A DNA stretch of 64,000 bases from an uncultured virus (IMG/VR IMGVR_UViG_3300027782_000076) (lineage: Duplodnaviria; Heunggongvirae; Uroviricota; Caudoviricetes; Crassvirales), in the IMG/VR virus record IMGVR_UViG_3300027782_000076; one strand, written 5' to 3'. Under the pieces are notes generated by a model. The model searched no databases. It was not told where the DNA came from and worked only from the letters and a program-made list of their open reading frames with translations. Positions 180-62,422 of the stretch are shown piece after piece. Within the stretch, counting starts at the first letter, position 1, and each line of letters begins with the position of its first letter. Both the position numbers and the translations under genes were made by a program.

Positions 180-1511
180 ATGCTTATGAATCTCTATCAA
201 CGAATTAAAGCTGCTATACTTCCTACTCAAGGTTCAAGTGCAGGTAACAAATATAACCAGTCTTTATTCTCTTATTTTAACGGAATATTCTTTAACATCC
301 CTAACAACCCAAGAGCGTATGTAAGAAGTGGCTATCAGGCTAACCCTGATGTATTTGCTATTATTAATATGATTGCAAAGAAGGCTGCTTCAGTTCCCTT
401 TTATGTATACGAGGTAAGCAATAAGAAGAGTTTTAATAGAACAAAAAACAATCCTATTAACATACTTAAAAAGGGATTAACGGAAGTAGAAGGTACTGAC
501 TTGAATAAGCTGATTGCAAGACCAAACGAAATGCAAAGCCAGCAGGAATATATTGAATCTTTAGTTTCTTTTTTAGAGATTACTGGTAACGCTTATTCTT
601 ATAAGTTTATGCCTGAAGTTGGTAGAAACAAAGGTGTGCCTACGAAACTTTACCCTTTACCATCACAATTCACACAAATCATAGGAAGTGGAACTTTTGA
701 GCCAATTAGTGCTTATAAGCTACAAATAGGAAACCAAGAGATTGAATTTAAAGTAAACGAAGTAAACCATATTAAGTTCTTCAATCCCGATTATAATGTA
801 AGTGGGAATCAATTATACGGAATGAGTCCTTTGATGGCGGCTTGGGAAACTGTTTCAAGTTCTAACGAAGGCACAAGGGCAAAGGCTAAAGCATTTATTA
901 ATGGTGGTGCAGCAGGTCTTTTATTTAGTGGGGATAAGGATGCAATGCTTGATGGCGAGCAAATAAGTAAGATTAACCAACAGATTGACACAAAATTAAC
1001 AGGTGCAGACAATTATAAGAGAATAGTAGCTACTAATGGTATTGTAGATTACAAGCAAATTGGAATGTCTCCAGCAGACCTTGAGATTATTAAATCAATA
1101 GGAGCGGATAGAGATACTTTATGTAGAGTGTTCGGAGTAGACCCTATCTTAATGGCTACCGATTCTGCTTCTTACAATAATAAGGAAATGGCTTACAAAG
1201 GATTAGTAACCAATACGGTTATTCCTATCTTAAATATGATTAGAGGTATGTTTAACGAGGTTGCTTTGTACTATTCTTTAAGAGATGGTGTTGAGTATTA
1301 TATTGACTACGATGCACAAGCATTCCCTGAAATGCAAAAGGATATGGAGAAGATAGTTGCACAGATGAAAGAATCTTGGTGGATTACTCCTAACGAAAAA
1401 AGAGATGCTATGAATTACGATAGATTAGACCAGGAAGATATGGATAGAATTTTAGTCCCTACTAACTTAACTTATCTTGATGAATTAGGAATGAGCGACC
1501 AAGCACTATAA
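180..1511 (+). CDS. HK97-family portal protein
   Basis: RPNEMQS, LEITGNAY, LYPLPS, GMSPL, FGVDP motifs; lies between TerL and head genes. Confidence 0.92.
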   Translation: MLMNLYQRIKAAILPTQGSSAGNKYNQSLFSYFNGIFFNIPNNPRAYVRSGYQANPDVFAIINMIAKKAASVPFYVYEVSNKKSFNRTKNNPINILKKGLTEVEGTDLNKLIARPNEMQSQQEYIESLVSFLEITGNAYSYKFMPEVGRNKGVPTKLYPLPSQFTQIIGSGTFEPISAYKLQIGNQEIEFKVNEVNHIKFFNPDYNVSGNQLYGMSPLMAAWETVSSSNEGTRAKAKAFINGGAAGLLFSGDKDAMLDGEQISKINQQIDTKLTGADNYKRIVATNGIVDYKQIGMSPADLEIIKSIGADRDTLCRVFGVDPILMATDSASYNNKEMAYKGLVTNTVIPILNMIRGMFNEVALYYSLRDGVEYYIDYDAQAFPEMQKDMEKIVAQMKESWWITPNEKRDAMNYDRLDQEDMDRILVPTNLTYLDELGMSDQAL

Positions 1512-2290
1512 TGACACAAGAAGAATTTGACACTAAACTACAAAAGTATTTAGAAACTTACGGCTATCGTTTGTATTCTAAGGCTTTAAAAGAATCTATA
1601 CAACCTATCATAGATGCTCTAAATGAATCGGAATCGGTTGAGTTTACTAAATCTATTTCTGGGATGTTATACACAGGAGTGCCTATCGCAATTGCTATGC
1701 AAACCTTTTATAATACTGCTTGGAATAAACAGTTAAGAGGTTATGTTAAATGGCTAAAGGCTAACTTACCTGCAGAAGCAACTATTGGAATAGGCTTTGA
1801 GAATCCTATAATGGATGCAGCACTAAAAGAATACTTTGCTACCATAGGTGGGCAACACATCAAAGATATAAACGCTACAAGTTTAAAGAAGATACAATCA
1901 GCATTCCAAACTGCTTTAGAAAATAACGAAGGTTTTAGAGGTGCAGAAAGAAGATTAATTAATGAAGTAGGAATGAATAAAACAAGAGCAAGGCTTATAG
2001 CAAGAACAGAATCAGTAATGGTTACTAACGCTTCTAAGTTTACTCAAAGTGAGTTAATGCCTATTTATATGGAAAAGACTTGGGTACACGACCACCCAAA
2101 GATGCCACGAGATTGGCATATAACTTTAAGTGGTAAGACTATTGACTTAAACGAGAAGTTTAATGCTAATGGATATATGATGAAACATCCAGGCGACCCT
2201 AATGGTGGCTTAACAAATAATGCTAATTGCAAATGTACAATGCTTACCAAAGCAAAATACGATGACGAAAATAATATCATTTATAAATAA
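1511..2290 (+). CDS. MuF/SPP1 gp7-like minor head protein
   Basis: RARLIARTE, KTW, HPGDP and NCKC motifs; follows portal. Confidence 0.85.
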   Translation: MTQEEFDTKLQKYLETYGYRLYSKALKESIQPIIDALNESESVEFTKSISGMLYTGVPIAIAMQTFYNTAWNKQLRGYVKWLKANLPAEATIGIGFENPIMDAALKEYFATIGGQHIKDINATSLKKIQSAFQTALENNEGFRGAERRLINEVGMNKTRARLIARTESVMVTNASKFTQSELMPIYMEKTWVHDHPKMPRDWHITLSGKTIDLNEKFNANGYMMKHPGDPNGGLTNNANCKCTMLTKAKYDDENNIIYK

Positions 2291-12455: not shown

Positions 12456-12739
12456 GAGATTCAAAAGAAATTAAGAAAAAGATAATTGAAGCCGGCAGAT
12501 TAGCTGTAGAGCAACTAATAAAAGTTGCAAAGGAAGATATTATTAAACCAAATGCTGAGGATGATTTGGCTGCAGATAAATTAAAGAACGCTGCTGCCAC
12601 TAAGAAATTAGCAATCTTTGATGCATTTGAGATATTAAGTCGGATTGAATTAGAAGAGGAGACTCTTGACTCATTAGATAATGGCAACAAAAAAACTGAT
12701 ACAAGACAGGGATTTGCAGAGCGAAGGTCAAGGCAATAG
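12452..12739 (+). CDS. Putative terminase small subunit
   Basis: Small helical protein overlapping the 5' end of TerL; positional inference. Confidence 0.5.
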   Translation: MRDSKEIKKKIIEAGRLAVEQLIKVAKEDIIKPNAEDDLAADKLKNAAATKKLAIFDAFEILSRIELEEETLDSLDNGNKKTDTRQGFAERRSRQ

Positions 12740-14963
12740 ATTATACTATGTAGTCGAAGACTACCTTCCTGCAAATGCAAAGACTAAAAAAAATACCTCA
12801 CGTAGTTGGCTATACGGGTATAACGAGCAATATGATTTGGTGGTTATATCTAAGAACGGTCAAATAGGAGATATTATTAATATATCAGGACTATACATTG
12901 CGCTGCCGCCTACTCCCAAAGAGTGTCTTCAAAGACACTACAAGTCATCGGAACAGTATTGGGAGAGACAGGAAATCCCTAAAGAATTAGCAAGAATACA
13001 ATCAATCTTTCATTGGAACGAAAAACCTAAGGAGTTTAAAGACCGATGGGTAGATTACATTGAGCAAGAGTTTGATTACAGAGAGCAAGGATTTTGGTTT
13101 ATGAATAATGGTAAACCTACCTACATTACAGGCTCACATTATATGTACTTGCAATGGTCAAGTATTGACGTTGGATACCCTGACTTCAGAGAAGCAAATA
13201 GAATTTATTGGATATTTTGGGAAGCCTGTAAAGCAGACCCGCGTTCATTTGGTATGATATACCTAAAGATTAGACGTTCGGGATTTTCATTTATGGCATC
13301 TTCAGAATGTATTAATGTGGGAACGCTTGCGCGCGATGCAAGGGTTGGTATCCTGTCTAAGACGGGTGCCGATGCTAAGAAGATGTTTACAGACAAGGTT
13401 GTTCCAATTAATAGCAGACTACCGTTTTTCTTCAAACCGATTATGGATGGTATGGACAAGCCAAAGACAGAGCTTGCCTTTAGGTTGCCGGCATCCAAGA
13501 TTACAAAGAAGAATATGTACGACAATAGTCAAGAAGATATAGACGGACTTGATACATCTATCGATTGGAAGAATACAGAAGACAACTCTTATGATGGGGA
13601 GAAGCTATTATTCTTAGCTCACGATGAGAGTGCTAAGTGGCTTAAACCTAATAACATCAAAGACAATTGGCGTGTAACTAAAACGTGTTTACGTTTGGGT
13701 TCTAAAATTATTGGTAAGTGTATGATGGGCTCGACCTCAAATGCATTATCAAAGGGCGGTCAAAACTACAAAGATATTTACGAGGACTCACGTGTTGCCA
13801 ATAGAAACGCCAATGGTCAAACTAAGAGCGGACTATATGCTTTGTTTATTCCAATGGAATGGAATATGGAGGGATTTATAGACATCTTTGGTATGCCCGT
13901 GTTTAAAAAACCTGAGCAGCCTATCTTAGGTGTTGACAAGGCAATGATTAAGAATGGTGCTATTGATTATTGGGAGGCGGAGGTTGACTCACTTAAAAGT
14001 GATGCCGACGCACTCAACGAATTTTACCGTCAGTTTCCGCGCACGGAGTCGCATGCATTCAGGGACGAGAGCAAGCAAGCACTATTCAATTTAACTAAAA
14101 TATACCAACAGATTGACTACAACGATTCGCTTATAACCGAGCACCACGTTACACGTGGAACCTTTCATTGGCGGGACGGTGTGAAGGATTCGACGGTTGT
14201 TTGGACTCCCGATAATAAGGGTAGATTCTTAGTGAGTTGGCTTCCGCCAAGGCACCTACAAAATAACGTAAGAGATAAGGGTGGAAACAAATATCCTGCA
14301 AGTGAGAGCTTAGGTTCGTTTGGTTGTGACTCGTATGATATATCGGCAGTAGTTGGGGGGCGTGGTTCTAATGGTTCGCTACACGGACTTACTAAGTTTC
14401 ATATGGACGACGGTCCTGTAAATCAATTTTTTTTAGAGTATATTGCAAGACCTCAGACGGCAGAGATATTTTTTGAAGAAGTATTAATGGCTTGCGTATT
14501 TTATGGTATGCCAATCTTAGTGGAGAATAACAAACCAAGATTGCTTTACCATTTTAAAAATAGAGGCTACAGACAGTTTTGTTTGAACAGACCCGACAAA
14601 CACATTAGCAAGCTCTCTAAGACAGAGAAAGAACTTGGGGGAATACCTAACTCATCTGAGGATGTTAAGCAGGCTCACGCGGCTGCTATCGAGTCCTACA
14701 TCGAAAAATATGTGGGGATGGATTTAGCGGGTAACTATAGAGACCCTGACGAGATGGGAACAATGCCATTCACAAGGACTTTAGAAGATTGGGCTAAATT
14801 TGATATTAATGATAGAACAAAATTTGACGCTTCTATTAGTTCGGGATTAGCTATTATGGCTAACCAAAAACATATGTACGTGCCTGAGAAAAAAGAGTCA
14901 AAAATAAGCATTAACTTTGCAAGATATACAAACGATGGAACATCAAGTCAAATAATTAGATGA
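12681..14963 (+). CDS. terL: Terminase large subunit (module B)
   Basis: KIRRSGFS Walker A-like, LAHDE Walker B, GST coupling motif, GCDSYD RNase H-like nuclease; true start may be slightly downstream. Confidence 0.88.
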   Translation: MATKKLIQDRDLQSEGQGNRLYYVVEDYLPANAKTKKNTSRSWLYGYNEQYDLVVISKNGQIGDIINISGLYIALPPTPKECLQRHYKSSEQYWERQEIPKELARIQSIFHWNEKPKEFKDRWVDYIEQEFDYREQGFWFMNNGKPTYITGSHYMYLQWSSIDVGYPDFREANRIYWIFWEACKADPRSFGMIYLKIRRSGFSFMASSECINVGTLARDARVGILSKTGADAKKMFTDKVVPINSRLPFFFKPIMDGMDKPKTELAFRLPASKITKKNMYDNSQEDIDGLDTSIDWKNTEDNSYDGEKLLFLAHDESAKWLKPNNIKDNWRVTKTCLRLGSKIIGKCMMGSTSNALSKGGQNYKDIYEDSRVANRNANGQTKSGLYALFIPMEWNMEGFIDIFGMPVFKKPEQPILGVDKAMIKNGAIDYWEAEVDSLKSDADALNEFYRQFPRTESHAFRDESKQALFNLTKIYQQIDYNDSLITEHHVTRGTFHWRDGVKDSTVVWTPDNKGRFLVSWLPPRHLQNNVRDKGGNKYPASESLGSFGCDSYDISAVVGGRGSNGSLHGLTKFHMDDGPVNQFFLEYIARPQTAEIFFEEVLMACVFYGMPILVENNKPRLLYHFKNRGYRQFCLNRPDKHISKLSKTEKELGGIPNSSEDVKQAHAAAIESYIEKYVGMDLAGNYRDPDEMGTMPFTRTLEDWAKFDINDRTKFDASISSGLAIMANQKHMYVPEKKESKISINFARYTNDGTSSQIIR

Positions 14964-17398
14964 AGAACGATATATTAATAAATGTTTTATCTACAGGGTT
15001 CCCGTCTCAGTTCGTATCCGATAGCGAAAAGGCTACCTATGAGTATGGATTACTTATAGGTCAGGCTATTCAATATGAGTGGTTTAGAAAAGATGGTAAT
15101 CAATGTAGATTTTACAGTCAATGGAGAGACTTCCATAGACTAAGGTTATATGCAAGGGGCGAGCAGTCTATTGCTAAATACAAAAATGAATTAGCTATTG
15201 ATGGAGATTTATCTTATCTAAACTTAGATTGGACTCCCGTTCCTATCATTCCTAAATTTGTTGACATTGTTGTTAATGGAATGTCTGATAGACTTTTTAA
15301 AGTTAAGGCTTATGCACAAGATGCAATGTCTCAATCTAAGAGAAGTAAATACCAAGATACCATTGAAGCTCAAATGGCTGCAAAGGACATCTTAACTACA
15401 ATACAAGATAAGACAGGTGTAAATCCTTTTATGATGGACCCTGCACAATTGCCAAATACAGACGAGGAACTCGCGTTGTATATGCAGTTGAATTATAAAC
15501 CTGCAATTGAAATTGCAGAAGAAGAAGCTATCAATACCATACTTGACGAGAATCATTATCAAGACTTACGTAAAAGAACTGATTATGATTTGATGGTATT
15601 AGGTATTGGTGTAGCTAAGCACGAGTTTTTGCCGGGCGCAGGCGTTGAGGTTTCATACGTAGACCCTGCCAATGTTGTGTATAGTTATACAGAAGACCCA
15701 TATTTTAGAGATTGTTTTTATTGGGGAGAAATTAAAACTCTACCCGTAATTGAATGTATGAAGATTGACCCAACACTTACTAACGAGGATTTAAAAGAAA
15801 TCTCTATGTTTAGTCAAAGTTGGTATAATTATTACAACGTAGCTCAATTCTACGAGAACAGTATGTTTAATGCAGATACCTGTACGTTAATGTACTTTAA
15901 TTATAAGACCACTAAGAAAGTAGTTTACAAAAAGAAAAAACTTGAAGGTGGCGCTACAAGAGTAATTGAGAAAGATGATACCTTTAATCCTCCTGTAGAA
16001 ATGATGGAGGAAGGTAACTTTGAGAAAATAGAAAAAACTATTGATGTTTGGTACAATGGCATAATGGTTATGGGTACCAACATCTTATTAAAGTGGGAGA
16101 TGGCAGAGAATATGGTTCGTCCAAAGTCTGCTACTCAGCACGCATTACCAAACTATGTTGCCGTTGCTCCACGTATGTACAAGGGAGTTATTGAGTCATT
16201 AGTAAGAAGGATGATTCCTTTTGCCGATTTGATTCAGATTACTCACTTAAAATTACAACAAGTAATTGCACGTGTAGTTCCTGACGGTGTATTCATTGAT
16301 GCCGATGGTTTAAATGAAGTAGATTTAGGGACGGGTAATGCTTACAATCCTGAGGACGCTTTAAGATTATACTTCCAAACAGGTAGTGTAATTGGTAGAA
16401 GTTATACTCAAGATGGTGAGTTTAATAATGCAAGGGTGCCAATCCAACAGTTAACATCTAACTCAGGAGCAAGTAAAACCCAAATGCTTATTACAAACTA
16501 CAATCATTATATGGATATGATTCGTTCTGTAACAGGTTTAAATGAAGCAAGAGACGGTTCAATGCCTGACCCTAACTCATTAGTTGGTTTACAAAAGTTA
16601 GCTGCGCTAAACTCAAACACAGCTACTCGTCACATATTAGAAAGTAGTTTATTTATTTTCCGTTCATTATCCGAGGCTTTAACGTATCGTATTGGTGATA
16701 TTTTAGAGTACGCAGACTTTAAAGATGATTTTGCAAATAAGATTGGTAAATATAATGTATCAATTTTAGGAGAGATTAATGATTTATACATTTATGATTT
16801 TGGCATTTTTATAGAGGTTTCACCGGATGAGGAAGAGAAAGCGCAACTTGAAGCGAATATTCAAATGGCATTATCTAAGGGCGATATTAATCTTGAAGAT
16901 GCTATCGACATACGTGAGATAAAGAATTTAAAACTTGCTAATCAATTATTAAAATTAAAGAGGACTAAGAAGCAAGAGCGTGAGGAGAAGATGGCTATGC
17001 AAAACCAAGCTATGACCGCTCAACAAAATCTTAAATCTCAGGAGATGGCAGGACAGTTGGCTATGCAGAAGATTCAAATGGAGACTCAAGCTAAGATGCA
17101 AATCAAGCAGGCTGAGGTAGCATTTGATATTGAAAAGATGCAGAAGGAAGCCGAGCTAAAGAGTCATCTGATGGCGGAGGAGTTCCAATATAGTATGCAA
17201 CTAAATGGGTTGGAACAAAGCACTATATCAGGTAGAGACAAAGAGAAAGAAGATGCTAAGGCAAAGCGTATTAGTCAACAAAACACAGAGCAATCTAAGT
17301 TGATTAATCAACGTAAGAATAACTTACCACCTTTAAACTTTGAGTCTAACGAGGATAGTTTAGATGGCTTTGATATGGGTGAATTTGAACCAAGATAA
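14960..17398 (+). CDS. Portal protein (podophage type, module B)
   Basis: 812 aa directly after TerL; IPKFVDIVVNG, VTGLNEARDG, long Q/M-rich C-terminal barrel helix. Confidence 0.85.
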   Translation: MKNDILINVLSTGFPSQFVSDSEKATYEYGLLIGQAIQYEWFRKDGNQCRFYSQWRDFHRLRLYARGEQSIAKYKNELAIDGDLSYLNLDWTPVPIIPKFVDIVVNGMSDRLFKVKAYAQDAMSQSKRSKYQDTIEAQMAAKDILTTIQDKTGVNPFMMDPAQLPNTDEELALYMQLNYKPAIEIAEEEAINTILDENHYQDLRKRTDYDLMVLGIGVAKHEFLPGAGVEVSYVDPANVVYSYTEDPYFRDCFYWGEIKTLPVIECMKIDPTLTNEDLKEISMFSQSWYNYYNVAQFYENSMFNADTCTLMYFNYKTTKKVVYKKKKLEGGATRVIEKDDTFNPPVEMMEEGNFEKIEKTIDVWYNGIMVMGTNILLKWEMAENMVRPKSATQHALPNYVAVAPRMYKGVIESLVRRMIPFADLIQITHLKLQQVIARVVPDGVFIDADGLNEVDLGTGNAYNPEDALRLYFQTGSVIGRSYTQDGEFNNARVPIQQLTSNSGASKTQMLITNYNHYMDMIRSVTGLNEARDGSMPDPNSLVGLQKLAALNSNTATRHILESSLFIFRSLSEALTYRIGDILEYADFKDDFANKIGKYNVSILGEINDLYIYDFGIFIEVSPDEEEKAQLEANIQMALSKGDINLEDAIDIREIKNLKLANQLLKLKRTKKQEREEKMAMQNQAMTAQQNLKSQEMAGQLAMQKIQMETQAKMQIKQAEVAFDIEKMQKEAELKSHLMAEEFQYSMQLNGLEQSTISGRDKEKEDAKAKRISQQNTEQSKLINQRKNNLPPLNFESNEDSLDGFDMGEFEPR

Positions 17399-21219: not shown

Positions 21220-21975
21220 ATGATTAACGACGTAAGAAACACAGTCTTATCCGTGTTAAATAAAAATAACTACGGGTATATCTCTCCATCAGACTTTAAC
21301 TTGTACGCTAAAAATGCGCAAATGGAGATGTATGAGGAGTATTTTAGTAGTTACAATAAGACTATAAATGCTGAGAATGCTCGTTTGTCAGGTACAGATT
21401 ACGCTGATATTGAAAGTCCTTTAGCTGAAACTTTAGAAACTTTTATGCATACAGATACGCTTGTTCAAGTATCACCTACAACTAATAAATATTACTATCC
21501 ATCCTTAGTAACTACGGGGCATAACGCCTATATGGTTTCTAAGATAGAAATCTATAATTCATTAGTACCAAATAAGCGTTTAGGCGAAGCTGAAAAGGTT
21601 TCTGTTAGTAAGATTAATATGTTGGTAGATTCTATTTATACAACTCCTAATACCAAGTACCCTGCATATACATTGCTTGGAGATATTATTACGGTTTACC
21701 CTGAAACAATTAATGGGGTTAACTCTGTACAATGCACATACTTTAGTTATCCTGCAGACCCTAAATGGACTTACATTACTTTAGTAAATGGTGAGCCTGC
21801 GTTTGACCAATCACAACCTGACTACCAAGACTTTGAATTACCACTTGAAGATGGATATAAATTAGTTATGAAGATTCTTCAGTATTGTGGTATTTCTATT
21901 AGAGAGTCTGAAGTTGTAGCTTACGCAATAGGTCAAGAACAACACGAACAACCGACGTTCAGTCAACAACAATAA
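21220..21975 (+). CDS. Tail adaptor/ring-like virion protein
   Basis: GYISPSDFN..A..AQ N-terminus, Y..YP.DPKW, DFELP; position after the capsid genes. Confidence 0.55.
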   Translation: MINDVRNTVLSVLNKNNYGYISPSDFNLYAKNAQMEMYEEYFSSYNKTINAENARLSGTDYADIESPLAETLETFMHTDTLVQVSPTTNKYYYPSLVTTGHNAYMVSKIEIYNSLVPNKRLGEAEKVSVSKINMLVDSIYTTPNTKYPAYTLLGDIITVYPETINGVNSVQCTYFSYPADPKWTYITLVNGEPAFDQSQPDYQDFELPLEDGYKLVMKILQYCGISIRESEVVAYAIGQEQHEQPTFSQQQ

Positions 21976-38200: not shown

Positions 38201-41200
38201 TTACAATACTAAAGTAAAAGACTTTACTAAAAAGATTTTAAATTCTAAAATATCTAAGGATGATATTTTAGAATATTTTGATATAAAAAAAGATATTAAC
38301 AAATATTCTGTTGATTATGGGGAGAATGGTTTAGTAAGTATATTAAGAGAAAATTTTAATGAAAAAATTAGAAAAAATAATTTTACTGAAGATTTAAATG
38401 GTAAGGTAGCACAAGGGTCATACGATATAAATGAAAATACTGAAATATTACTTGATAATTTAAGTTCTACATTTGATGATTTAAAATTAATTAAAAATTT
38501 AAAGTTTATTACAGGTAATGTTAATCTTGAAGATTCTGAAATAATATCATTAGGAAATTTAGAATTTATTGGTGGTAATCTAAATCTTAGAAACTCTGAT
38601 TTAAAAGACTTAGGTAATTTAAAGACTATTGGTGGTTCTGTTTTATTTAAAGAATCTAAAATTAAATCGTTAGGAAATTTAGAAAGTATTGGTGCAAATG
38701 CAGATTTTAGTGACTCTAAGGTTGAATCATTAGGTAATTTAAAGAGTATTGGTGGAATTGCAGAATTTCAAGATTCTTTTATTGAAGACTTAGGTAATTT
38801 AGAAACTATTGGGCAACGTGGATATTTTTCACGTTCTGATGTAAAATCATTAGGTAAATTAAAGAGTATTGGTGATGGTGGATATTTTTGGGGTTCTAAT
38901 ATTAAATCATTAGGTAATTTAGAATTTATTGGTGGAGATATTGATATTGGAGATAGTAAAATTGAAGATTTAGGTAATTTAAAAACTATTAGTGGTAATG
39001 CTCGATTTGGGAACTCTCAAATTAAAAACTTAGGTAATTTAGAAACTATTGGTGGATACGCTGATTTTATACACTCTAATGTTGAAAATTTAGGTAAATT
39101 AAAGACTATTAATCGTGATGTTTATTTTAAAGAATCTAAAATTAAAGATTTAGGTAATTTAAAAACTATTGGTGGTAATGTTTATTTTAATGATTCTAAA
39201 ATTGAATCATTAGGCAATTTAGATAGTATTGGTCAAAATGCTTATTTTACTAACTCTAATTTTAAATCATTAAATAATTTAAAGAGTATTGGTGGAAATG
39301 CTTTTTTTTCAAATTCTTCTGTTGAAGACTTAGGTGATTTAAAAACTATTGGTATCGATGCTGACTTTGAAGATTCTAAAGTTAAATCGTTAGGAAATTT
39401 AAAAACTATTATTGGAAGTGCATATTTTCAAGATTCAAAAGTTGAATCATTAGGTAATTTAGAGAGTGTTGGTGTTAATATTAATATTACAAGGTCTAAT
39501 ATACCAAACTTAGGTAAATTAAAATTTATTGGAGGAATTTTATATAGTGATATTCCTGTATTAAATGCAGAGGCTCTTGATATTAAAGACAAACAATCAC
39601 CTACATTATCAAGGTCTCAATTAACAGACCCAATTACTAAGGTAGTAAGAGAGGCAAGAGCTCAAGGATTCTCTGAGGAAGCTATCAAATTATTCTTAGA
39701 GGGTGAGGGTGTATCTGCATCTGAAATTGAAAGTGCTATGTCTCCCGAGACTCCTGCATCTGCAAGAGTAAAAATATCTGAGAAGTTATCTGCAGGATTT
39801 GACAGGATGATGGGCGAGGTTGAGGGTATTATAGAGAAGTCTAAGAGGCGTAATGTAGACCAAGCAAAGATAACCGAGAACGTAATTAGTTACGTGATGG
39901 GCTCTAAAGTTTACGAGAACGCCACAGACGTACAACGCGAAAAAATTATCCGCGATATTAAGACTAAGTTTGGTATCAACCTAAAGTCTGCTCCAAGCGT
40001 AGCGAAATTATTTGGTACACTAAATGACGTTAAGAAGTTTACGCTAACCGAGAAGCAGCTTTATATTAAGCGACTTAAAGAATTACAAGAGGGAGCAAAG
40101 ACCGCAATTGCAGCTTGGAAACAGGCGTCTGTATTAATGGCTAAAGAGATTAAAGCACTTGTGAAGTCGGGTACTATTACAGCAAGACAAGAAGGTTTTA
40201 TTATAAGCAAGTTTGCTAAGGTAAATATGCTAAGCCCTAAATCTGTGTTAAGATTTGTTGACTATATGGGCAAAGTGTTTGCAGATGCAGAGTACGGTGC
40301 TCAGTTGGGAACAGCAAAGGGTCTTAGAAGTGATATTAAAAAGCTATCTAAAAATAAAGAGAAGAACGCAGACTTTAGAAAGTTAGCAGAAGAGTTTATA
40401 AATATTGACCCGGCAATGGTGGACGATATTTATGCGTACAATGAGATGGCTTCTCAGATTAAGAGTTCTGTAAAGGGTTCTACTTTAAGAGGAGAGAAAG
40501 TTAAATTCTCTGACGTTGTAAGTATTCAGGACGCCACAAGATATATTAGCGATACATTAAGAGTCCAAGATAAAAAAATCTTAGAAGAGCAAAGAGCAGA
40601 GGTACAGGAGCTGATGGGTATTGATGCATCAGATATGACCCCTGAACAATTGAGAGATTTATTAGAAGGCGAAGGAGAAGTTAAAGTAACAAAGTATAAC
40701 GAGTCTATTGTAAGAAGTCTTTTAGATAAAGCATTCAAGGCTTACTCAGGAGTAATAGACGAGATATTAAAGACGGGTTACGATGCGTTCTATACAGGAG
40801 AAAAAGTTGAGCTAACTAAAAATCAGAAGACTTTAATTAAACAATTTATGGATATGGACTTAACCGTTCTTACTCCTAAAGAATCTCTTCAGGCTGTGGA
40901 TGCCCTTGCTAACTTTATTCAAAACCAATCTACTGCGAAGATGGAGACAGTTGTCTCTGATTACACGGGAAGATTAAACGCGCGTAAATTAGCAGCATCA
41001 GGTGTTAAGGCTCAACCTTTAATGAAGTATAAGTCAAAAGGATTTGGTAAATTCTTAGCAGAACAAACTACAACGCTACCTATTCTATTTGAAAAAATGT
41101 TCAAAGGATTTAATAGGTCAGGTGAAGTAATGGATATGATGGGTGTTACTAAACTTATCAATGGTAAGTCTCTTGCGCAGAATATGTCAAATATAATTGT

Positions 41201-43739
41201 TAATGATTACGTAAGGCAGTTCTTTAACAAGAAGGCTAATGGTGAGGCATTTAATACCGACTACAATAACGTAGAGAGAGGTATAGCTTCATTTATGATG
41301 AGGAATGTTATTGGCACCGAGCAGCAAATGCAAACTGAGTTTAACAGAAGAAAAAATTTACTTGAAGAATCTATTGAAGTTTTATCTAAGGGTAACGATA
41401 TAGAAAAACAAAAGGGTGATTTATACCAAAAGGCATACGATAAGATTGTAAAAGACTCTAAGACTATTCAGGAAATAAAAAGCAAAACTGATGCAACTAA
41501 CTTAGAGGCTATTAATTTTTGGACAAGCCAATGGGCTGATAAATACCAAGAGCTATCTGATGTATCTGAGAATGTCTATAATAAAATATTAGACAAAGAT
41601 ATTAACTATAGCCCTGATAGATTTGCAAAGATAAGTTCTGATACAGGTGAGGTTGAATTAGCAAACGACGAGTCTGCATTCCATAGTAATAATGGTACTA
41701 TCTATAAGAAAGAGACAGGCGTATTGATGAAGGCAATTAAGCCTCAAACTTTACCTACCAATAAAAAGAATGGTAAACCTACATCTTATATTGAGCTATC
41801 TTTTGATAAAAACAATTCAAATTCAATGTACGATGCTCTCGTTGATATGAAGACAGCGTCGGCTATTAGACAGATAGAGGCATTTGAAAACTCGGCAGAA
41901 TTTGAGAAGATTGTACCTACAGCTGACGATGCTAAAATATTAAAAGATAGAATTCAATTATATGTAAGAAACATTAGAAATAAAAGTCCTTACTCGGACG
42001 ACCAATTCTCTAAGGCTGTTAGAAATTTAAATAGACTTGCAGCCTTTGGTGTAGGTCAGGCTTTAAGTGGATTTGGTCAGCCTATCAAGCAGATGGTTCC
42101 CGTACTTACCAACACATTAATTAATGCAGGTAGCATAGATATTATGAGTGGCTTCAATGCGGCTAAGCAAAAGTTTATGAGCGAGTCAGGATATGGTATT
42201 GCAAATAGAGGTGTTGAATCACAGGCTCAAATTGAATCTCTTAATAAATTAATTGACAAAGCGCCTACAGGTAATTTTGATAAATCAATAAAATGGATTG
42301 AAAACGTAAATAGAAAATACTTAGAGTTTTTCTTAGTTAACCCCGACGTATTTATAGCGAGAGCATCTTGGATGTCTTACTACGAAAAGTCTTTAAAGGA
42401 ACAAGGAGTAGACCCTAACGGTGTTGACTATAATACTCACGAGTTAAATGAGAAGGCGGCAAACTACGCTCAGCGTATGGTTGACAGACAGCAAAATATA
42501 TCTGACGTAGATTTGTCGGGTAAATTATTTGCAAGTAAGGAATCATCTAATCAAGTTCTTGTAAAAATGTTAATGCCTTTTGCAAGTTTTAGAATGAACC
42601 AATCGGCAAGATTAGGTGCCGACCTTGCAACATTAGCTGACAAGACTGCAACTGCAGAAGATAAGAAGATTGCATCAAAATCTCTTGCAGGTTTTGGAGT
42701 CGAGTTAGCTACATTTAAAATTATTAGTGCAGGTATCGCTATCACATTAGGTACATTAACTAAAATGTTAATGGGTCAGGATGAGGACGAGGAAGAAAAA
42801 GATAAGCGTATTAATAATGTAATTAAGGGTCAATGGACAGGTACAATTACAGATATTATATCTCCATTGCCTGTTGTAGATAAACCAATTCAAGTGGCAG
42901 TAGAAAGTGTTTCTACTTTATTAGAAGAGGGAACAGGACTTCCTGTATCTACCTTTGGTGTAAGTAAATCAGATTGGACTTCTAACTTAGGTACGTTTGG
43001 TATCTCAGCACAAAGAGCTACCGAGCTTTATGATATGAGTATGTTAGCGGCAACAGGAGAGTACACCGATGACTTTAATAAGAAGAAGACCATCTCAAGT
43101 GAAAGTCAAAGTCAAATAACTAAATTACTACCATTTGCAATGCTTTCAAATATGGGTCTTGCTCCTTCGGAGGTAAACACAGTGGTTAAGAATGCTGTTA
43201 AGTATGCTAAGAAGAATACAAAGTCTCCTGAAGAAAAACAGCAGGCTAAAGAAAATAAAGAGGAAAGAGAATCTACTAAGCAAGAAAAGATTAACGCACT
43301 TAGAACTATCATCGAGGAATCTAATGACGAAGCCATCATAAAACAGGCACAAGAAAAGATTGATGAGGTAGATGCCGATAGCGAAGAGAAAAAAATCATT
43401 AAGCAGGAGAACGCTGAAGAAAAGCAAGCAAAGAAAAAGTTATTGGTTGACCCTGATACAGGTGAGGAGTACGACAGCGAGTCAGACTTAAAGAGATACA
43501 ATAAAGATTTGTGGGAACAAAATTTTGGTGAGGGGTCTGATTGGTACGAAAGTCATAAGGAAGAGAAAGAGGTAGAGAGTCTTCTTAGAAAGAAAGTTCA
43601 ACAGATGAAGGACGAGGAAATGAATTATACAGGAAGAAATTCTGACGGTAGCAAAAAAAGATTTGGAGCGAGCGGTACAAAGAAAGCTCAAAGGTTTGGT
43701 TCGAGCAGTAAGGGTAAGGTTAAAAGGTTTGGCTCTTAG
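32262..43739 (+). CDS. Giant multidomain (polyvalent-type) virion protein, 3825 aa
   Basis: ParB/Srx-like ITDGHHR, zincin HEIFH..EEYLAE, PcfJ-like NTYWCT..PRIAVRM..EVRG, 20-aa repeats, helical C-terminus. Confidence 0.8.
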   Translation: MQDIKQALRDFVATSNSGKYTDEKILLSKFPELQGYDVEALRDFVATSNSGKYTNEDELFSKFPEFNLSGAQPTLKKKEPTTTESSLAGTSSGLSSEQNLNPFAKNTVGIPQPTKTVAAQETIQPTEGFATTPVETITETIAPVKTKKQEVEDILKNVKITEEVPVIKPFDKETEKILSEGPKSKRTSLASNYSDNFLLGIGALSKMAASIPEAAYTLMAIPQNAVALATGLNIAMDANNFKKNQGLKNPLLDAVNREQELTAKKIETFNKENYESSSVYENIKKGNYGDAFELMGAGIIQSAPVSVAMMYGGATLTKAEFLTAGTSAFFQENYDELDKENPDMSKIEKTFRGLGMAGAETFFAFLGDVPIGQVYKSIIAKEGFEAGKSIFKNGLVQAYKTALRKYGVPIGLVGEGLEEAATQVTQNMISGKDATEGVADAFIIGSGAGGVFTAPLTAIQGVEQVKNLTKDYQAKSTINTILKDKDVELTQVYNVPKADKFTPEQIDIANTDRSRDILRKNLLSQLKSGAITKADAKQSLYVFDKVQQVSNEVKDLNISSTEKAEVANLLSERNDLATQIQNKEPILVAKEKEKIIELENKIVDVIQKSTFNETTKTKEDAIQEPSTDESLLLGEQPEVGLPKVEEGNAQPEGPTEGTTEVTPAQPQEEVSFSLDNIKKEGVNGKYYSGSLNELIFLDPKDLRGLNDDEEIAAYRNKQESKKENNWTDKQWAESILDVPTSEYPIMATLAPDGKIKITDGHHRQLAAIILNKNLAVKLKVDNYVDEKGKPTLLEYLNSKVKEPEVSLKTPEQEVTELKGLFGKKQATTDSGISVSDKTTVNNIKTKLADKAKTKIIESAQRGLTTLKSVLPNFDIVIHENEGSYNAAMETLNGTQSSKGNFAYSQTADGGYSGRIDINLDKADGRTVAHEIFHGVMLQAFGENPKLFKSFKDRISKVLKDSTNKQLIEFANLYEGDVTYEEYLAELGGILEQQEETISPSTLQKIAAIINEFVAKITNGTLKPFEDIKNTKDIVDFFNTISESIRKGEEINLKYNNNGLVSKSVSKAQAEKIFSGEESRPVFKTLNEVADWLSAWSKKNKIVKKDLTSATDKSIVNAIVDHTKKELDAWEKVKDGYEGFYDEDIPLKLNPELVSWAKKKYNRELTTSEISLYHILSSFASPSATPVFDSNIGLQIFDKYLRTGELSAYTDKQATMWETDKKGKRFDTGKPKFDEKGNPVMSQIARAYATESLNKFKSIVDYFKGDVKKAVEWIESKHSYEELSKVMGTPLKGAKSLQPHENLSREDGGFGVFATSGPKLGSYILNRVGEYGTVTKDLWYARTMARLFGEPLVDSKGEVLKNPWATTIEGNRRRKLADDAWSIVAKDLNTKPAIIQQRVWDFEKRLWQMLGAESSAAGKASEGLKRGIEEVEKKSQISKSQVDNRKKAIAVANTMGMNDKGFFKRDSNPSQLNNMLRQYGYGVKQAKLTPDGFGGGYYLVDEEGKKAIKTPISKAQKINLRDYKTKEVKGEELKVGDIYVRDIFGERFVYKLLEIPRVDWVKGNFFNADVEILHIGTWNNENAKKYGIKEKIIGDKTLDRFKSPRANLRKFGKLKLIENWNEVNSAINTPISKAQKVQEEVEQMQQSIPVPISKAQKGLINLTENDVLKYKRVGIEDKRTAQAMNQIGLSGVKFTKEEVDKKIREEFNKLIKDIDFYVINEDSPAITQAIKAEITTLEDEGASLDRIERAKSALDENSPMRTNFISEYARAQEETLSQWKSYLYQSDYSDAFKYIILDAVLTHNYDAKTGAYTKRSNKTIRNFTPFDAGTLASIYDSESKALLKDYVEVQGNNAKNIIGANSMESTNEGTWLKFEGGNNAKDLTGTANKLSQLVQNTYWCTKTNAQSQLRGGDFYVFVTEDNKGEYIPRIAVRMEGDKVGEVRGNASSKQDLEPSMLPVADKFLKESIPNNSGKKWLDSIAYNTKVKDFTKKILNSKISKDDILEYFDIKKDINKYSVDYGENGLVSILRENFNEKIRKNNFTEDLNGKVAQGSYDINENTEILLDNLSSTFDDLKLIKNLKFITGNVNLEDSEIISLGNLEFIGGNLNLRNSDLKDLGNLKTIGGSVLFKESKIKSLGNLESIGANADFSDSKVESLGNLKSIGGIAEFQDSFIEDLGNLETIGQRGYFSRSDVKSLGKLKSIGDGGYFWGSNIKSLGNLEFIGGDIDIGDSKIEDLGNLKTISGNARFGNSQIKNLGNLETIGGYADFIHSNVENLGKLKTINRDVYFKESKIKDLGNLKTIGGNVYFNDSKIESLGNLDSIGQNAYFTNSNFKSLNNLKSIGGNAFFSNSSVEDLGDLKTIGIDADFEDSKVKSLGNLKTIIGSAYFQDSKVESLGNLESVGVNINITRSNIPNLGKLKFIGGILYSDIPVLNAEALDIKDKQSPTLSRSQLTDPITKVVREARAQGFSEEAIKLFLEGEGVSASEIESAMSPETPASARVKISEKLSAGFDRMMGEVEGIIEKSKRRNVDQAKITENVISYVMGSKVYENATDVQREKIIRDIKTKFGINLKSAPSVAKLFGTLNDVKKFTLTEKQLYIKRLKELQEGAKTAIAAWKQASVLMAKEIKALVKSGTITARQEGFIISKFAKVNMLSPKSVLRFVDYMGKVFADAEYGAQLGTAKGLRSDIKKLSKNKEKNADFRKLAEEFINIDPAMVDDIYAYNEMASQIKSSVKGSTLRGEKVKFSDVVSIQDATRYISDTLRVQDKKILEEQRAEVQELMGIDASDMTPEQLRDLLEGEGEVKVTKYNESIVRSLLDKAFKAYSGVIDEILKTGYDAFYTGEKVELTKNQKTLIKQFMDMDLTVLTPKESLQAVDALANFIQNQSTAKMETVVSDYTGRLNARKLAASGVKAQPLMKYKSKGFGKFLAEQTTTLPILFEKMFKGFNRSGEVMDMMGVTKLINGKSLAQNMSNIIVNDYVRQFFNKKANGEAFNTDYNNVERGIASFMMRNVIGTEQQMQTEFNRRKNLLEESIEVLSKGNDIEKQKGDLYQKAYDKIVKDSKTIQEIKSKTDATNLEAINFWTSQWADKYQELSDVSENVYNKILDKDINYSPDRFAKISSDTGEVELANDESAFHSNNGTIYKKETGVLMKAIKPQTLPTNKKNGKPTSYIELSFDKNNSNSMYDALVDMKTASAIRQIEAFENSAEFEKIVPTADDAKILKDRIQLYVRNIRNKSPYSDDQFSKAVRNLNRLAAFGVGQALSGFGQPIKQMVPVLTNTLINAGSIDIMSGFNAAKQKFMSESGYGIANRGVESQAQIESLNKLIDKAPTGNFDKSIKWIENVNRKYLEFFLVNPDVFIARASWMSYYEKSLKEQGVDPNGVDYNTHELNEKAANYAQRMVDRQQNISDVDLSGKLFASKESSNQVLVKMLMPFASFRMNQSARLGADLATLADKTATAEDKKIASKSLAGFGVELATFKIISAGIAITLGTLTKMLMGQDEDEEEKDKRINNVIKGQWTGTITDIISPLPVVDKPIQVAVESVSTLLEEGTGLPVSTFGVSKSDWTSNLGTFGISAQRATELYDMSMLAATGEYTDDFNKKKTISSESQSQITKLLPFAMLSNMGLAPSEVNTVVKNAVKYAKKNTKSPEEKQQAKENKEERESTKQEKINALRTIIEESNDEAIIKQAQEKIDEVDADSEEKKIIKQENAEEKQAKKKLLVDPDTGEEYDSESDLKRYNKDLWEQNFGEGSDWYESHKEEKEVESLLRKKVQQMKDEEMNYTGRNSDGSKKRFGASGTKKAQRFGSSSKGKVKRFGS
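32280..32460 (+). repeat. Two 99-bp (33-aa) tandem repeats
   Basis: ALRDFVATSNSGKYT.E..L.SKFPE occurs twice. Confidence 0.85.
38490..39540 (+). repeat. 17-18 tandem in-frame 60-bp repeats (20-aa LRR-like)
   Basis: TTAGGTAATTTA core every 60 nt from 38550 to 39510; consensus LGNLKxIGGxAxFxxSxIxS. Confidence 0.92.
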
Positions 43740-53997: not shown

Positions 53998-54324
53998 TTA
54001 GTTTGTTATTGTTTTAGTTATTAAACTCTCGATAATTTCAAACTTCCCGTCCTGAAAGTAAATATCAACGGGAAAGTCAATGTCAGGTAAGCACAATGTC
54101 TGCTCACCGAATAGGTTCATATTCACTGCCCCAAAATCCTCGATAAAGTAATCCTCGATTTCGCTCCAATGGATGAGCAACTCGATGTCCACCTCGTTAA
54201 TTTTTATCTCCACCGAATATATCAATGCAGACTTGTTGTTGACCTCGAACACTTCGAGGTCGATTGTTGGGAACTTGTTCTCTTGTACCCAAGAACTCAG
54301 CTCCGATAATTTAAATTTTTTCAT
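53998..54324 (-). CDS. Hypothetical acidic protein
   Basis: Start moved to ATG 54324 (A-rich leader); the track start at 54360 lies inside the ribozyme. Confidence 0.6.
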   Translation of the reverse strand: MKKFKLSELSSWVQENKFPTIDLEVFEVNNKSALIYSVEIKINEVDIELLIHWSEIEDYFIEDFGAVNMNLFGEQTLCLPDIDFPVDIYFQDGKFEIIESLITKTITN

Positions 54325-54349
54325 TTGTTTGTTTGTTTTGGTTTTTAAA

Positions 54350-54403
54350 TCCCGTTTCATCCTTTTGGAATCATCAGTCGAGACAACTCATCTCGATACG
54401 GGA
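54350..54403 (-). ncRNA. Type III hammerhead ribozyme HH1
   Basis: UCCCG-UA/UCGAGA-UGAGUUG-UCUCGA-CUGAUGA-UUCC-AAAA-GGAU-GAAA-CGGGA. Confidence 0.85.
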
Positions 54404-54571
54404 GAGTGTCCTTAAAGACACTCCCGTTTTTTATGGTCTAAACCTGACGACTTCGGTCTCGGTGAACCAACTACAAAAACCCCCGTAATAATAGTGTGCG
54501 AACCCCATCGAACCTCAGTCGTTATAATAAAGCACTAAGATAGCATATACATTGCACATATCAAAATTAAA

Positions 54572-57228: not shown

Positions 57229-57537
57229 TTATTTTTGATTTAATTTAATTTTTGTCCATAGAATTTCACAACCGCAACAATTATACACCTCGATTCCGAT
57301 GTACCCGTCTTTCTCTTTGTATTTAAAGTAATCTCGGCTACGACCTACGCAGTAAACACCTTTGTGACCTATTGCGTCAGCCTTGTCAATTTGTATCATC
57401 TCGGTATCTTGGAAATACTCGATGCCGTCAAACATTCCATTGAACCTTGACTTTGTTTCGACGAATAATTCGTCTGCATTTTTAATGAACGACTTTAGCG
57501 TCGCCATCGTGATTTTTTTGTTTTTTAAATTTTCCAT
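57229..57537 (-). CDS. Hypothetical phage protein
   Basis: KITMATLKSFI...SRFNGM.D...GVYCVG.SRDYF...VYNCCG. Confidence 0.7.
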   Translation of the reverse strand: MENLKNKKITMATLKSFIKNADELFVETKSRFNGMFDGIEYFQDTEMIQIDKADAIGHKGVYCVGRSRDYFKYKEKDGYIGIEVYNCCGCEILWTKIKLNQK

Positions 57538-57560
57538 TTTTTTATGGGTTTAAGGGGTTT

Positions 57561-57611
57561 GCCGTTTCGTCCTTTTGGACTCATCAGGTGGGACACTCAT
57601 CCCACGACGTC
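57561..57611 (-). ncRNA. Type III hammerhead ribozyme HH2
   Basis: GACGUC/GUGGGA-UGAGUG-UCCCAC-CUGAUGA-GUCC-AAAA-GGAC-GAAA-CGGC; fully canonical core. Confidence 0.9.
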
Positions 57612-57638
57612 AGGAGCGCCTGAGCGCCCCTGATTTGA

Positions 57639-58043
57639 TTACTCTATCGGGTGAACTTTAATATCATTCTCAACCAATTGCTGAAACCAATTTTTCAACT
57701 CTAAATCAGCGACGTATATCCACGTCGACACCTCACGGGATAGGGCGTTGGTGCTACGCGCCCTGACGTTGCCCTTGCGATTCAATGTTACTTCGTAATT
57801 ACCGATTATTACTTTAAGTTTCTCTTGCTGATGTTTGTTAGCGTGGTTCGGATTGTTAAAGTAAAGTAAATGGTATTTGTACTCCTCAATTTGGTATTGA
57901 TAGGTATATAAATTCTCACCTACTTCGGCAAAGTTTTCTAAGAAATTTGCGTTCAATAATTTTTGCAAATCTTTAACCTTGTACTCCAAATATTTAATTT
58001 GGTTTGTTACTTCTGATGCGATGTCGTTGATGTCTCTTCTCAT
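57639..58043 (-). CDS. Hypothetical protein
   Basis: Early ORF with A-rich leader. Confidence 0.6.
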   Translation of the reverse strand: MRRDINDIASEVTNQIKYLEYKVKDLQKLLNANFLENFAEVGENLYTYQYQIEEYKYHLLYFNNPNHANKHQQEKLKVIIGNYEVTLNRKGNVRARSTNALSREVSTWIYVADLELKNWFQQLVENDIKVHPIE

Positions 58044-60805: not shown

Positions 60806-62422
60806 ATGCAAACAGAAAATTTAGGGTACTCCCCGAAGAACTTACAGTTCGACGAGCAGGGTAGGGAAAAATTAGCTAATGGTGTTAAGCTGATGGCGAA
60901 GGCTGTCAAGAGCACATTAGGTCCAAGTGGAAACACGGTGCTAATTGAATCACCAAATCACACACACGGTATTACGGTAACAAAGGACGGGGTAACAGTA
61001 GCAAAGTCTATTGACCTGTTAGACCCTGTAGAAAACCTTGCGGTTAAGATTATGAAGGAGGCGGCAGACAGAACTGCTACGAGTGCCGGTGACGGTACGA
61101 CCACTGCAATTGTGCTAACCGAGGCTTTAGTAATAAATGGTCTTAACTTAATTAACGAGGGTTACAACAGAACAGAAGTATTAAGAGCGTTATCGGACAT
61201 AACCACTAAGGTGGTGGACAAGTTGGTTAAAAAAAGTAAGAAGGTAAGTAACGCAATGTTGTCCGATGTGGCAACTATATCAGCAAACAACGACAAGGAG
61301 ATAGGTAAGATTATCTCTGAGGTATATAAAGAGGTTGGTAAGAACGGTATCGTGACCGTCGAGAGGTCGCAGACTGCGGACACCTATGCTGAAACCACTA
61401 AGGGATTAAAGATTGAGAGAGGTTACTCGTCTCAGCTGTTTATCAATAACCAAAAGAAGGACGAGTGTATATTTGAGGACGTGATGGTAATGGTAGCAGA
61501 TGTGGACATTAGTAACATCTTGCAGATTGAGAACGTATTAAAACCAATTATATCTGAGGGTAAAAAATTACTAATCATTGCACCGTGCTCTACCAATGTG
61601 GTTAACACTATTGCCGCTAACGTAATGAAGAACAACTTAAAGATATGCACAATTCAACCACCGAACTTTGGGTACAAGCAACACGAGCTGATGCAAGATA
61701 TTGCTATTAGCGTCGGAGCCACGTACTTCAGCGAGAAAACCGGAGATGATTTGTCTCATATCAGTTACGCTGATTTAGGTCACGCAAGTAGAGTAATTGT
61801 TGGTAGAGACAGCACGGTACTTGTTAAGTCAACTGCAAAGGCGGACGAAACATTAATTGCTGAGCGCGTTGCACAGCTGTGGGATGCTTACGCAATGGCA
61901 AAGAGAAAGACGGACAAGGACTTTATCTTAGAGAGAATCGCATCACTCACGGGTGGTGTTGGTGTAATCTACGTCGGTGGTAACACTGACTTGGAGCAGA
62001 AGGAATTATTCGATAGAGTAGACGACGCGGTATGCGCGGTACGTTCAGCCTTGGAGGAGGGAATATTGTCGGGAGCGGGTAAGGCATTGTACGAGATTAA
62101 CTGCTCAGAGTTTTTAACAGAAGATGCATCTGACGAATATAAGATTGCGAGTTTAATTATTCAACTTGCAATTGAGTCACCACTAAAACAAATATTAACT
62201 AATGCAGGATTAAGTTCTGAAGATATTTATAGCGGTGAGAAAAAAGAAGGTTGGGGCTATAACCTGAAAGATGGTAAGATGGGAGATTTAATTTCGATGG
62301 GTGTTATTGACCCATTAAAGGTAACGAGAAGCGCACTACAGAATGCAGTCTCAGTTGCAATAACTATACTAAGTACGAATGCTATCATTACGATGTCAAG
62401 GACGTATGAAGCAGGTTCTTAA
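60806..62422 (+). CDS. groEL: Phage-encoded chaperonin GroEL
   Basis: TLGP.G, VTKDGVTVAK, AGDGTTTA, ATISAN, GVIDP.KV.R.ALQNA.S; promoter at 60771-60778. Confidence 0.97.
   Translation: MQTENLGYSPKNLQFDEQGREKLANGVKLMAKAVKSTLGPSGNTVLIESPNHTHGITVTKDGVTVAKSIDLLDPVENLAVKIMKEAADRTATSAGDGTTTAIVLTEALVINGLNLINEGYNRTEVLRALSDITTKVVDKLVKKSKKVSNAMLSDVATISANNDKEIGKIISEVYKEVGKNGIVTVERSQTADTYAETTKGLKIERGYSSQLFINNQKKDECIFEDVMVMVADVDISNILQIENVLKPIISEGKKLLIIAPCSTNVVNTIAANVMKNNLKICTIQPPNFGYKQHELMQDIAISVGATYFSEKTGDDLSHISYADLGHASRVIVGRDSTVLVKSTAKADETLIAERVAQLWDAYAMAKRKTDKDFILERIASLTGGVGVIYVGGNTDLEQKELFDRVDDAVCAVRSALEEGILSGAGKALYEINCSEFLTEDASDEYKIASLIIQLAIESPLKQILTNAGLSSEDIYSGEKKEGWGYNLKDGKMGDLISMGVIDPLKVTRSALQNAVSVAITILSTNAIITMSRTYEAGS

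Follow-up and report, generated by a model that had tools for sequence, protein, structure and literature searches.

Hammerhead ribozymes have been known from phages and bacteria since 2011, and the locus described here brings no new kind of element. According to Perreault et al. (2011; PMC3088659), clustered hammerheads flank prophage genes in Agrobacterium, Azorhizobium and Clostridium scindens, and arrays of them cleave in transcripts of about 2 kb. The Figure S6 legend of that paper lists a PaP3 phage hammerhead, from a phage intergenic region, among the active core variants; its Dataset S1 taxon list includes both LUZ24 and PaP3, and a primer note refers to a 'PaP3 phage potential type3 HH at end of genome' (PMC3088659). 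Section 8 of the same paper describes U10.1-U11.1 as a natural hammerhead variant and as the best-tolerated mismatch at this position (PMC3088659). In a text search of the literature, we found no paper coupling a hammerhead with LUZ24. As for function, a 2019 review calls the role of bacterial and phage hammerheads largely elusive, and presents the processing of polycistronic transcripts as suggested rather than established.

The element of interest here, hammerhead B, lies at 54403..54350 on the minus strand of what we call the window, the whole 64,000-nt stretch of viral DNA that was analysed. Sequence reading supports it as a genuine-looking type III hammerhead that is predicted to cleave itself and that belongs to a phage subfamily including the PaP3 and LUZ24 elements. 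This reading draws on a full-length match to the Rfam type III model, covariation across 59 family copies, compensatory changes in orthologues and the likeness to PaP3.

Read 5′ to 3′, hammerhead B opens with UCCCGU (54403-54398), which pairs with the terminal ACGGGA (54355-54350) to form stem III, including the A15.1-U16.1 pair (A54355 with U54398). The GUA triplet occupies 54399-54397, position 17 being a non-G base, A, at 54397, and the cut is predicted between 54397 and 54396. Next come the 6-bp stem I (UCGAGA, 54396-54391, with UCUCGA, 54383-54378), closed by the 7-nt loop I UGAGUUG (54390-54384), the CUGAUGA core (54377-54371), stem II (UUCC, 54370-54367, with GGAU, 54362-54359) around loop II AAAA (54366-54363), and G12A13A14 (54358-54356). 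All three helices of the fold are in place, stems I and II loop-closed and stem III open. The invariant bases C3-U4-G5-A6-N7-G8-A9 and G12-A13-A14 are present in both hammerheads of the window; the canonical G10.1-C11.1 pair of stem II is found in hammerhead A, and hammerhead B carries U10.1·U11.1 in its stead (54370 opposite 54359). An earlier note on this DNA had named the CUGAUGA and GAAA cores, a 6-bp stem I, a UCCCG/CGGGA stem III and a GUA triplet, all of which we recover by reading the sequence, and it had placed the cut between 54397 and 54396, about 70 nt before the ATG at 54324. Our prediction agrees, with the ATG 72 nt downstream of the cut.

Rfam model RF00008 aligns to hammerhead B over model positions 1-54 of 54 with 34.2 bits, corresponding to E=0.0015 for a search of the whole window on both strands with all 4227 Rfam families and to E=7e-6 when the RF00008 search is limited to 301 nt. 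Hammerhead A reached 42.4 bits and E=7e-6 in the whole-window search. Because both scores fall under the RF00008 gathering score of 48.5, an Rfam scan of the window at gathering thresholds gives no hit of any family, and the RF00008 matches appear only with E-value reporting. The check with Infernal and Rfam that the earlier note proposed therefore returns a full-length match, but one under the gathering score. Another sub-threshold Rfam match in the window, to CRISPR-DR6 at 21350-21416 on the plus strand (34.2 bits against a threshold of 39, E=0.0019), lies inside an ORF (21220..21975) and is probably spurious.

For an assessment with a family-specific model, we built a covariance model, R2, on 57 hammerheads that all came from other phages, leaving the window sequences out. 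Searched over the window with filters off, R2 gave 71.5 bits for hammerhead B and 71.3 for hammerhead A, the next best match scoring 9. The E-value for hammerhead B is about 1e-18, to be read with the limit that the 24-nt core and stem II of the 57 sequences were set by the search pattern, so that independent evidence comes only from stems I and III, the GUH triplet and loop I.

Hammerhead A (57613..57559, minus strand) is also of type III and is backed by the Rfam and R2 scores as well as by an orthologue in a relative. It sits in the same leftward operon, on the same strand, 3.2 kb upstream of hammerhead B, and occupies the 101 nt that separate ORF 57639..58043 from ORF 57229..57537. Its triplet is GUC, with C17 at 57606 and the cut predicted between 57606 and 57605. 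Stem I pairs 57605-57600 with 57593-57588, CUGAUGA occupies 57587-57581, and stem III (57612-57607 with 57565-57560) contains one A·G mismatch. Immediately 5′ of the ribozyme lies a GC-rich hairpin (57630-57613, minus strand) with GGGGCGC and GCGCUCC as its arms and UCAG as its loop, starting 8 nt past the end of a 134-aa ORF upstream, whose stop codon is at 57641-57639. On the other side, the 102-aa gene at 57229..57537 (minus strand), which has no PHROG family, begins with an ATG 26 nt past GAAAC. The minimum free energy (MFE) fold of hammerhead A (-39.1) differs from the hammerhead fold, which when enforced comes to -33.0, about 6 kcal/mol higher.

DNA of the window phage was found in 24 freshwater runs, all of them DNA metagenomes. 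Its large terminase is 45% identical to that of Flavobacterium 'elemo' phages, with matches to Cellulophaga phages too, and the closest record is MW202828.1, an uncultured phage of 60.9 kb with 77-80% amino acid identity in terminase and primase. The structural genes are on the plus strand, and the leftward operon runs from about 58.4 to 45 kb, starting with small unknown ORFs and continuing with a Sak-like annealing protein, an exonuclease, a primase/helicase and a helicase. In the order of transcription, this operon comprises two ORFs, hammerhead A, about 10 ORFs, hammerhead B, a 108-aa ORF, and then the recombination and replication genes. Several other features of the window deserve mention in their own right. 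There are two portal-like genes on the plus strand, one at 180..1511 (phrog_12) adjoining a head-morphogenesis gene (1511..2290) and one at 14960..17398 (phrog_6547) adjoining the large terminase (region 12681-17398); two such genes are unusual for one phage genome and may represent a second module or an assembly join. The plus strand also carries an ORF of 3825 aa at 32262-43739 and a phage-encoded GroEL-like chaperonin at 60806-62422 (phrog_5725, E=4e-131).

When the 3 kb around hammerhead B were compared with isolate phages by blastn, only a 47-nt piece corresponding to the ribozyme matched. This element occurs in 26 Pseudomonas Bruynoghevirus records and shows 89.6% identity to window positions 54353-54400. 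The same search with hammerhead A gave a single weak partial match, in a Rhizobium phage (E=0.4). An exact pattern of core plus stem II retrieved 72 stretches from viral contigs in IMG/VR. After duplicates had been dropped, the alignment comprised 59 distinct 62-nt sequences, including both window copies and that of phage phiIBB-PAA2. Left out were L032, an edge-truncated locus, and L015, L020 and L042, pattern matches which we rejected as hammerheads in that they have neither a GUH triplet nor a stem I. The signature of the subfamily is a stem II of the form KUCC-WAAA-GGAY together with a UGNGUG loop I, in a phage-borne setting.

Across the 59 copies, every cell of stem I (100%) is paired, and all six of its pairs change on both sides. 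The inner four pairs of stem III are each formed in 58 of 59 copies, two of them (alignment columns 10-57 and 9-58) with changes on both sides, and 15.1-16.1 is U-A in 58/59. The covariation score is 0.624 as compared to 0.162 in shuffles, none of 500 of which reached it, and to 0.06-0.10 when the partners are slid. Stem II had no part in this, its variation being blocked by a search pattern that fixed it. Loops I and II, whose tertiary contact supports fast cleavage in hammerheads, are conserved in sequence: loop I opens with U in 59/59 and has G as its second base in at least 90%, and the bases of loop II are AAAA or UAAA. Loop I is 6 nt long in 57 of the 59 copies, as opposed to 7 nt in hammerhead B.

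Relatives with orthologous ribozymes were located through the downstream proteins. The orthologue of hammerhead A (L080) has a stem I of different sequence that is fully compensated, GCGGAG/CUCCGC, along with CUGACGA, GUA and a perfect stem III. Four orthologues of hammerhead B (L075-L078) share its 7-nt loop I and intact core; three of them (L075-L077) keep the U·U and have a UAAA loop II, and in the fourth (L078) G-C replaces U·U, a two-sided change. The element can also be missing. Model R1 finds no copy in MW202828.1, neither across the full record nor in the 13 kb of its early region, and an Rfam search of that region at E<=0.01 yields no ribozyme of any class; a complete 64-kb relative (G002/L079) has no copy, and its corresponding gene junction has zero spacer. 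These absences indicate that the hammerhead element, though conserved where it occurs, is dispensable. At the other extreme, two phage contigs, G003 (L179) and G004 (L180), each hold five same-strand copies within 4.5-5.7 kb, where the ribozymes stand between blocks of ORFs, not between individual genes. Rfam searches of the examined regions of L179-L181 recovered seven copies at 32-44 bits, under the RF00008 gathering score. With the two of the window, all nine copies checked against Rfam fall under that score, and routine annotation probably misses the subfamily.

The earlier note had described the U-U opening of stem II as a variant that may tune the rate. The mismatch is present; besides being a documented natural state, it accounts for 37 of the 82 distinct sequences (98 stretches) obtained in a relaxed search with N at both 10.1 and 11.1. 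Another 44 are G-C, and the single remaining one, A/C, is not a hammerhead; the 75 copies in which a cleavage site can be recognised show no third state. The U·U variant is thus already known, from its description in Perreault et al. 2011 and from the PaP3 element (NC_004466.2, 45419-45499), which has the U·U/GUA/UCC-UAAA-GGA form.

What the larger sample adds is an association between the 10.1/11.1 state and the base at the cleavage site. Among the same 75 copies, those in the G-C state have C17 in 35 cases, A17 in five and U17 in one; those in the U·U state have C17 in one, A17 in 29 and U17 in four. Fisher's exact test gives 6e-14, or 2e-8 after collapse to 52 distinct stem I strands, figures in which shared ancestry may play a part. 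The pair L075/L078 tells us that the 10.1/11.1 state can switch while N17 stays. Both U10.1·U11.1 and A17 are expected from hammerhead mutagenesis to slow cleavage, each relative to G-C and C17, respectively. Tuning of the rate by the U·U of hammerhead B is plausible. If the coupling of N17 with 10.1/11.1 is real, it would indicate an undescribed structural or kinetic link in the hammerhead core. We did not find a two-state pattern tied to N17 stated in the portions of Perreault et al. 2011 (PMC3088659) available to us.

The surroundings of the ribozyme are as regular as its core. Of the 59 copies, 49 are followed by an ORF whose ATG lies no more than 35 nt past GAAAC, mostly at 21-29 nt, and most have an open frame upstream whose stop comes some 45-65 nt ahead of CUGAUGA. 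In 42/59 copies, the 40 nt before G16.2 contain a hairpin at least as stable as -10 kcal/mol, compared with 4/59 control windows taken 150 nt further upstream, and the distance from the end of these 5′ hairpins to the scissile bond is 3-7 nt. Leaders vary, some copies having GGAG and others not. The layout is therefore that of a stable hairpin preceded by a stop codon or a gene remnant and followed first by the ribozyme and then, about 25 nt on, by an ATG.

Hammerhead B conforms to this layout. The hairpin directly 5′ of it extends over 54427..54403 (minus strand), its MFE fold spanning 54424-54403 with 9 pairs, and the MFE structure of 54440..54340 (-28.7 kcal/mol) is this hairpin and the hammerhead fold side by side. 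On the plus strand, the same DNA reads as a terminator-like stem (54404-54423) followed by a six-T run (54404-54432 in all); plus-strand ORFs of at least 150 aa end at 43739 and resume at 59771, none of them near this site. Just before the hairpin, on the minus strand, lies a 27-codon gene remnant (54514..54431, ending in CSWFTETEVVRFRP) with its TAA at 54433-54431. Comparison of stop-to-stop frames with ORF 20..868 of L075 identifies it as what is left, at the 3′ end, of a gene that relatives have in full and that codes there for 282 aa with a C-terminal zinc-ribbon-like CxxC...CxxC. Downstream, an A-rich leader without a Shine-Dalgarno sequence (54349..54325, minus strand) connects stem III with the ATG at 54324, 29 nt past GAAAC, the start of a 108-aa gene with no PHROG family (53998..54324, minus strand).

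In L075 and L078, 4 nt separate the TAA of the 282-aa gene from the hairpin 5′ of the ribozyme, and a 76-aa ORF intervenes between the ribozyme and the counterpart of the 108-aa gene. In the window, the upstream gene is a remnant without a start and the 76-aa ORF is absent, with hairpin, ribozyme and leader all kept. Gene content thus differs on both flanks of the retained cassette.

These relatives also bear on where in the transcript the ribozyme sits. The earlier note had assigned it to an early-gene leader. An early-type region is a reasonable label, given an operon of small ORFs and recombination and replication genes, but a promoter-proximal leader is not borne out. A sigma-70-type promoter scan upstream of hammerhead B found 13 sites versus 11.4 expected and is thus uninformative, and a Bacteroidota-type consensus gave two matches versus 1.7 expected, neither close to the ribozyme; a leader with its own promoter finds no support in these scans. 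Since the 282-aa gene of the relatives ends 4 nt before the hairpin and the window keeps its 27-codon remnant, an intercistronic position is supported for hammerhead B, about 4 kb into the leftward operon, rather than that of a demonstrated promoter leader.

Taken together, we consider it probable that the type III hammerhead at 54403..54350 splits an early polycistronic RNA into separately stable pieces. The leftward operon would be transcribed as a polycistronic RNA in which hammerheads A and B each fold and cut 3′ of N17 by internal transesterification, the chemistry that follows from membership of the hammerhead class. The upstream piece would then end in a 2′,3′-cyclic phosphate 3-7 nt past a stable hairpin, which should shield it from 3′ exonucleases and may in addition stack on the short stem III. 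The RNA on the other side of the cut would have its 5′-OH right where the stem I hairpin starts, and would continue into an open leader of about 25 nt and the next start codon. Cut at both sites, the message would fall into a first piece with two ORFs, a second with about 10, and a third with the 108-aa ORF together with the genes for recombination and replication, and each of these sub-operons could gain a stability and translation of its own, independent of the RNA upstream. Cleavage in the window phage and effects on RNA stability and expression are what we infer from sequence comparisons, and such effects would agree with the suggestion made for bacterial hammerheads in the 2019 review. 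Weighing against the proposal are the sub-gathering Rfam scores of both copies, the absence of the element from MW202828.1 and G002, the MFE fold of hammerhead A, and the slower cleavage expected of U10.1·U11.1 and A17.

A more specific version of this proposal, which we put forward tentatively and regard as rather doubtful, is that hairpin, hammerhead and leader make up a portable insulator between cistrons that comes in two settings, G-C/C17 and U·U/A17, which are mixed within an operon and set how completely each site is cut. If true, the two settings could programme the relative amounts and lifetimes of early sub-operons.

Portability could also be explained without any service to gene expression. 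The cassette might persist selfishly, or as a portable boundary at which blocks of genes are exchanged, with cleavage being incidental to the expression of its neighbours. The variable presence among close relatives would fit this idea, as would the changed flanks of hammerhead B, with the upstream gene truncated and the 76-aa ORF missing around an unchanged cassette, and the near-identical 47-nt element in unrelated Pseudomonas podoviruses; the leaders with and without GGAG further suggest that the cassette occurs in phages differing in their ribosome-binding leader. However, a stem I that stays fully paired while its sequence varies freely speaks of selection on RNA pairing, not on DNA identity, and both the orientation and the spacing to the next start codon are constant. 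We consider this explanation unlikely.

Another alternative concerns the hairpin, which might extend into the 5′ strand of stem III and make the ribozyme conditional, cleavage being gated by opening of the hairpin base, for example by a terminating ribosome. In hammerhead B, the segment ACGGGA at 54427-54422 repeats the 3′ strand of stem III letter for letter and, in an alternative hairpin register, pairs with UCCCGU, the 5′ strand. Across the family, the upstream RNA alone pairs all four inner nucleotides of the stem III 5′ strand in 15/59 copies and three of them in 8/59, and these real 4- and 3-nt tails beat locus-swapped tails (mean ddG -1.73 vs -1.19, Mann-Whitney p=0.002, uncorrected for relatedness); stop codons a few nucleotides before the hairpin are likewise as expected. 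Yet 19/59 copies are without such pairing, so the arrangement is not family-wide; the full-length MFE structure of hammerhead B already is the hairpin beside the hammerhead; and with a startless remnant as the upstream gene of the window, there would be no terminating ribosome. Sequestration of stem III by the hairpin as a general switch has partial support, and as an account of this locus we think it quite improbable.

Less probable still is that the purpose lies in the chemistry of the ends, the 5′-OH and 2′,3′-cyclic phosphate serving RtcB-type ligation into circular or re-joined RNA, or escape from host nucleases or sensors that depend on the 5′ end. The window transcript does carry two ribozymes, and those of relatives up to five; the 3.2-kb piece between hammerheads A and B would bear both types of end, and the stem III 5′ strands are largely interchangeable among copies (CYGU/ACRG). 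Against this, we saw no ligase gene among the 28 ORFs scanned, and many contigs in the 72-stretch set show one pattern match only. Just as improbable is an inactive look-alike or chance match, with activity abolished by U·U and the extra loop I base, or a fortuitous motif, and with the hairpin acting only as a plus-strand terminator, since the sub-threshold Rfam score, the terminator-like site at 54404-54423 and the unusual loop length are outweighed by the E-value from the independent model R2, the retention of the 7-nt loop with an intact core in L075-L078, the frequency of U·U in the family and in a PaP3 element listed as active, and the lack of a plus-strand gene close enough to need a terminator.

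Returning to the proposal that the ribozymes divide the early message, we note that the cassette layout, the pairs of relatives with and without a copy, and the two-state core make the idea of mRNA punctuation testable by simple reporter and kinetic experiments.

How, then, does hammerhead B compare with described systems? The PaP3/LUZ24 (Bruynoghevirus) element resembles it in the CUGAUGA/GAAA core, U10.1·U11.1, the UCC/GGA stem II, the UGNGUG type of loop I, the GUA triplet and type III topology, and likewise sits just 5′ of a small early gene. The host ranges are different, Bruynoghevirus members being Pseudomonas podoviruses and the window phage a freshwater one with relatives among Flavobacterium and Cellulophaga phages. 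The loops differ as well: hammerhead B has 7 nt in loop I and AAAA in loop II, whereas loop II of PaP3 is UAAA. The element of phiIBB-PAA2 comes after the annotated early promoters and before orf01, whose start codon is inside stem III; hammerhead B, in contrast, is operon-internal and about 29 nt before its ATG. To RF00008 (Hammerhead_3; viroids, plant satellite RNAs and others), hammerhead B corresponds in the three-helix junction and core over all 54 positions, but the context there is an RNA replicon with rolling-circle replication, and the window copies lie in an operon of a dsDNA phage and have sub-gathering scores.

With the prophage arrays, the window shares the presence of several ribozymes on one polycistronic RNA in phage-type gene contexts. 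The clustered prophage hammerheads of Agrobacterium, Azorhizobium and Clostridium scindens are mainly of type II, whereas those of the window are of type III, each with a preceding hairpin and a leader of fixed length. Finally, engineered insulators such as RiboJ combine a hammerhead derived from sTRSV with a hairpin, placed 5′ of the ribosome-binding leader, and give the mRNA a uniform 5′ end. RiboJ is synthetic and has its hairpin on the 3′ side, whereas the hairpins of the window are on the 5′ side and would stay with the upstream fragment. By analogy, the window cassette resembles a natural counterpart of these engineered ribozyme insulators.
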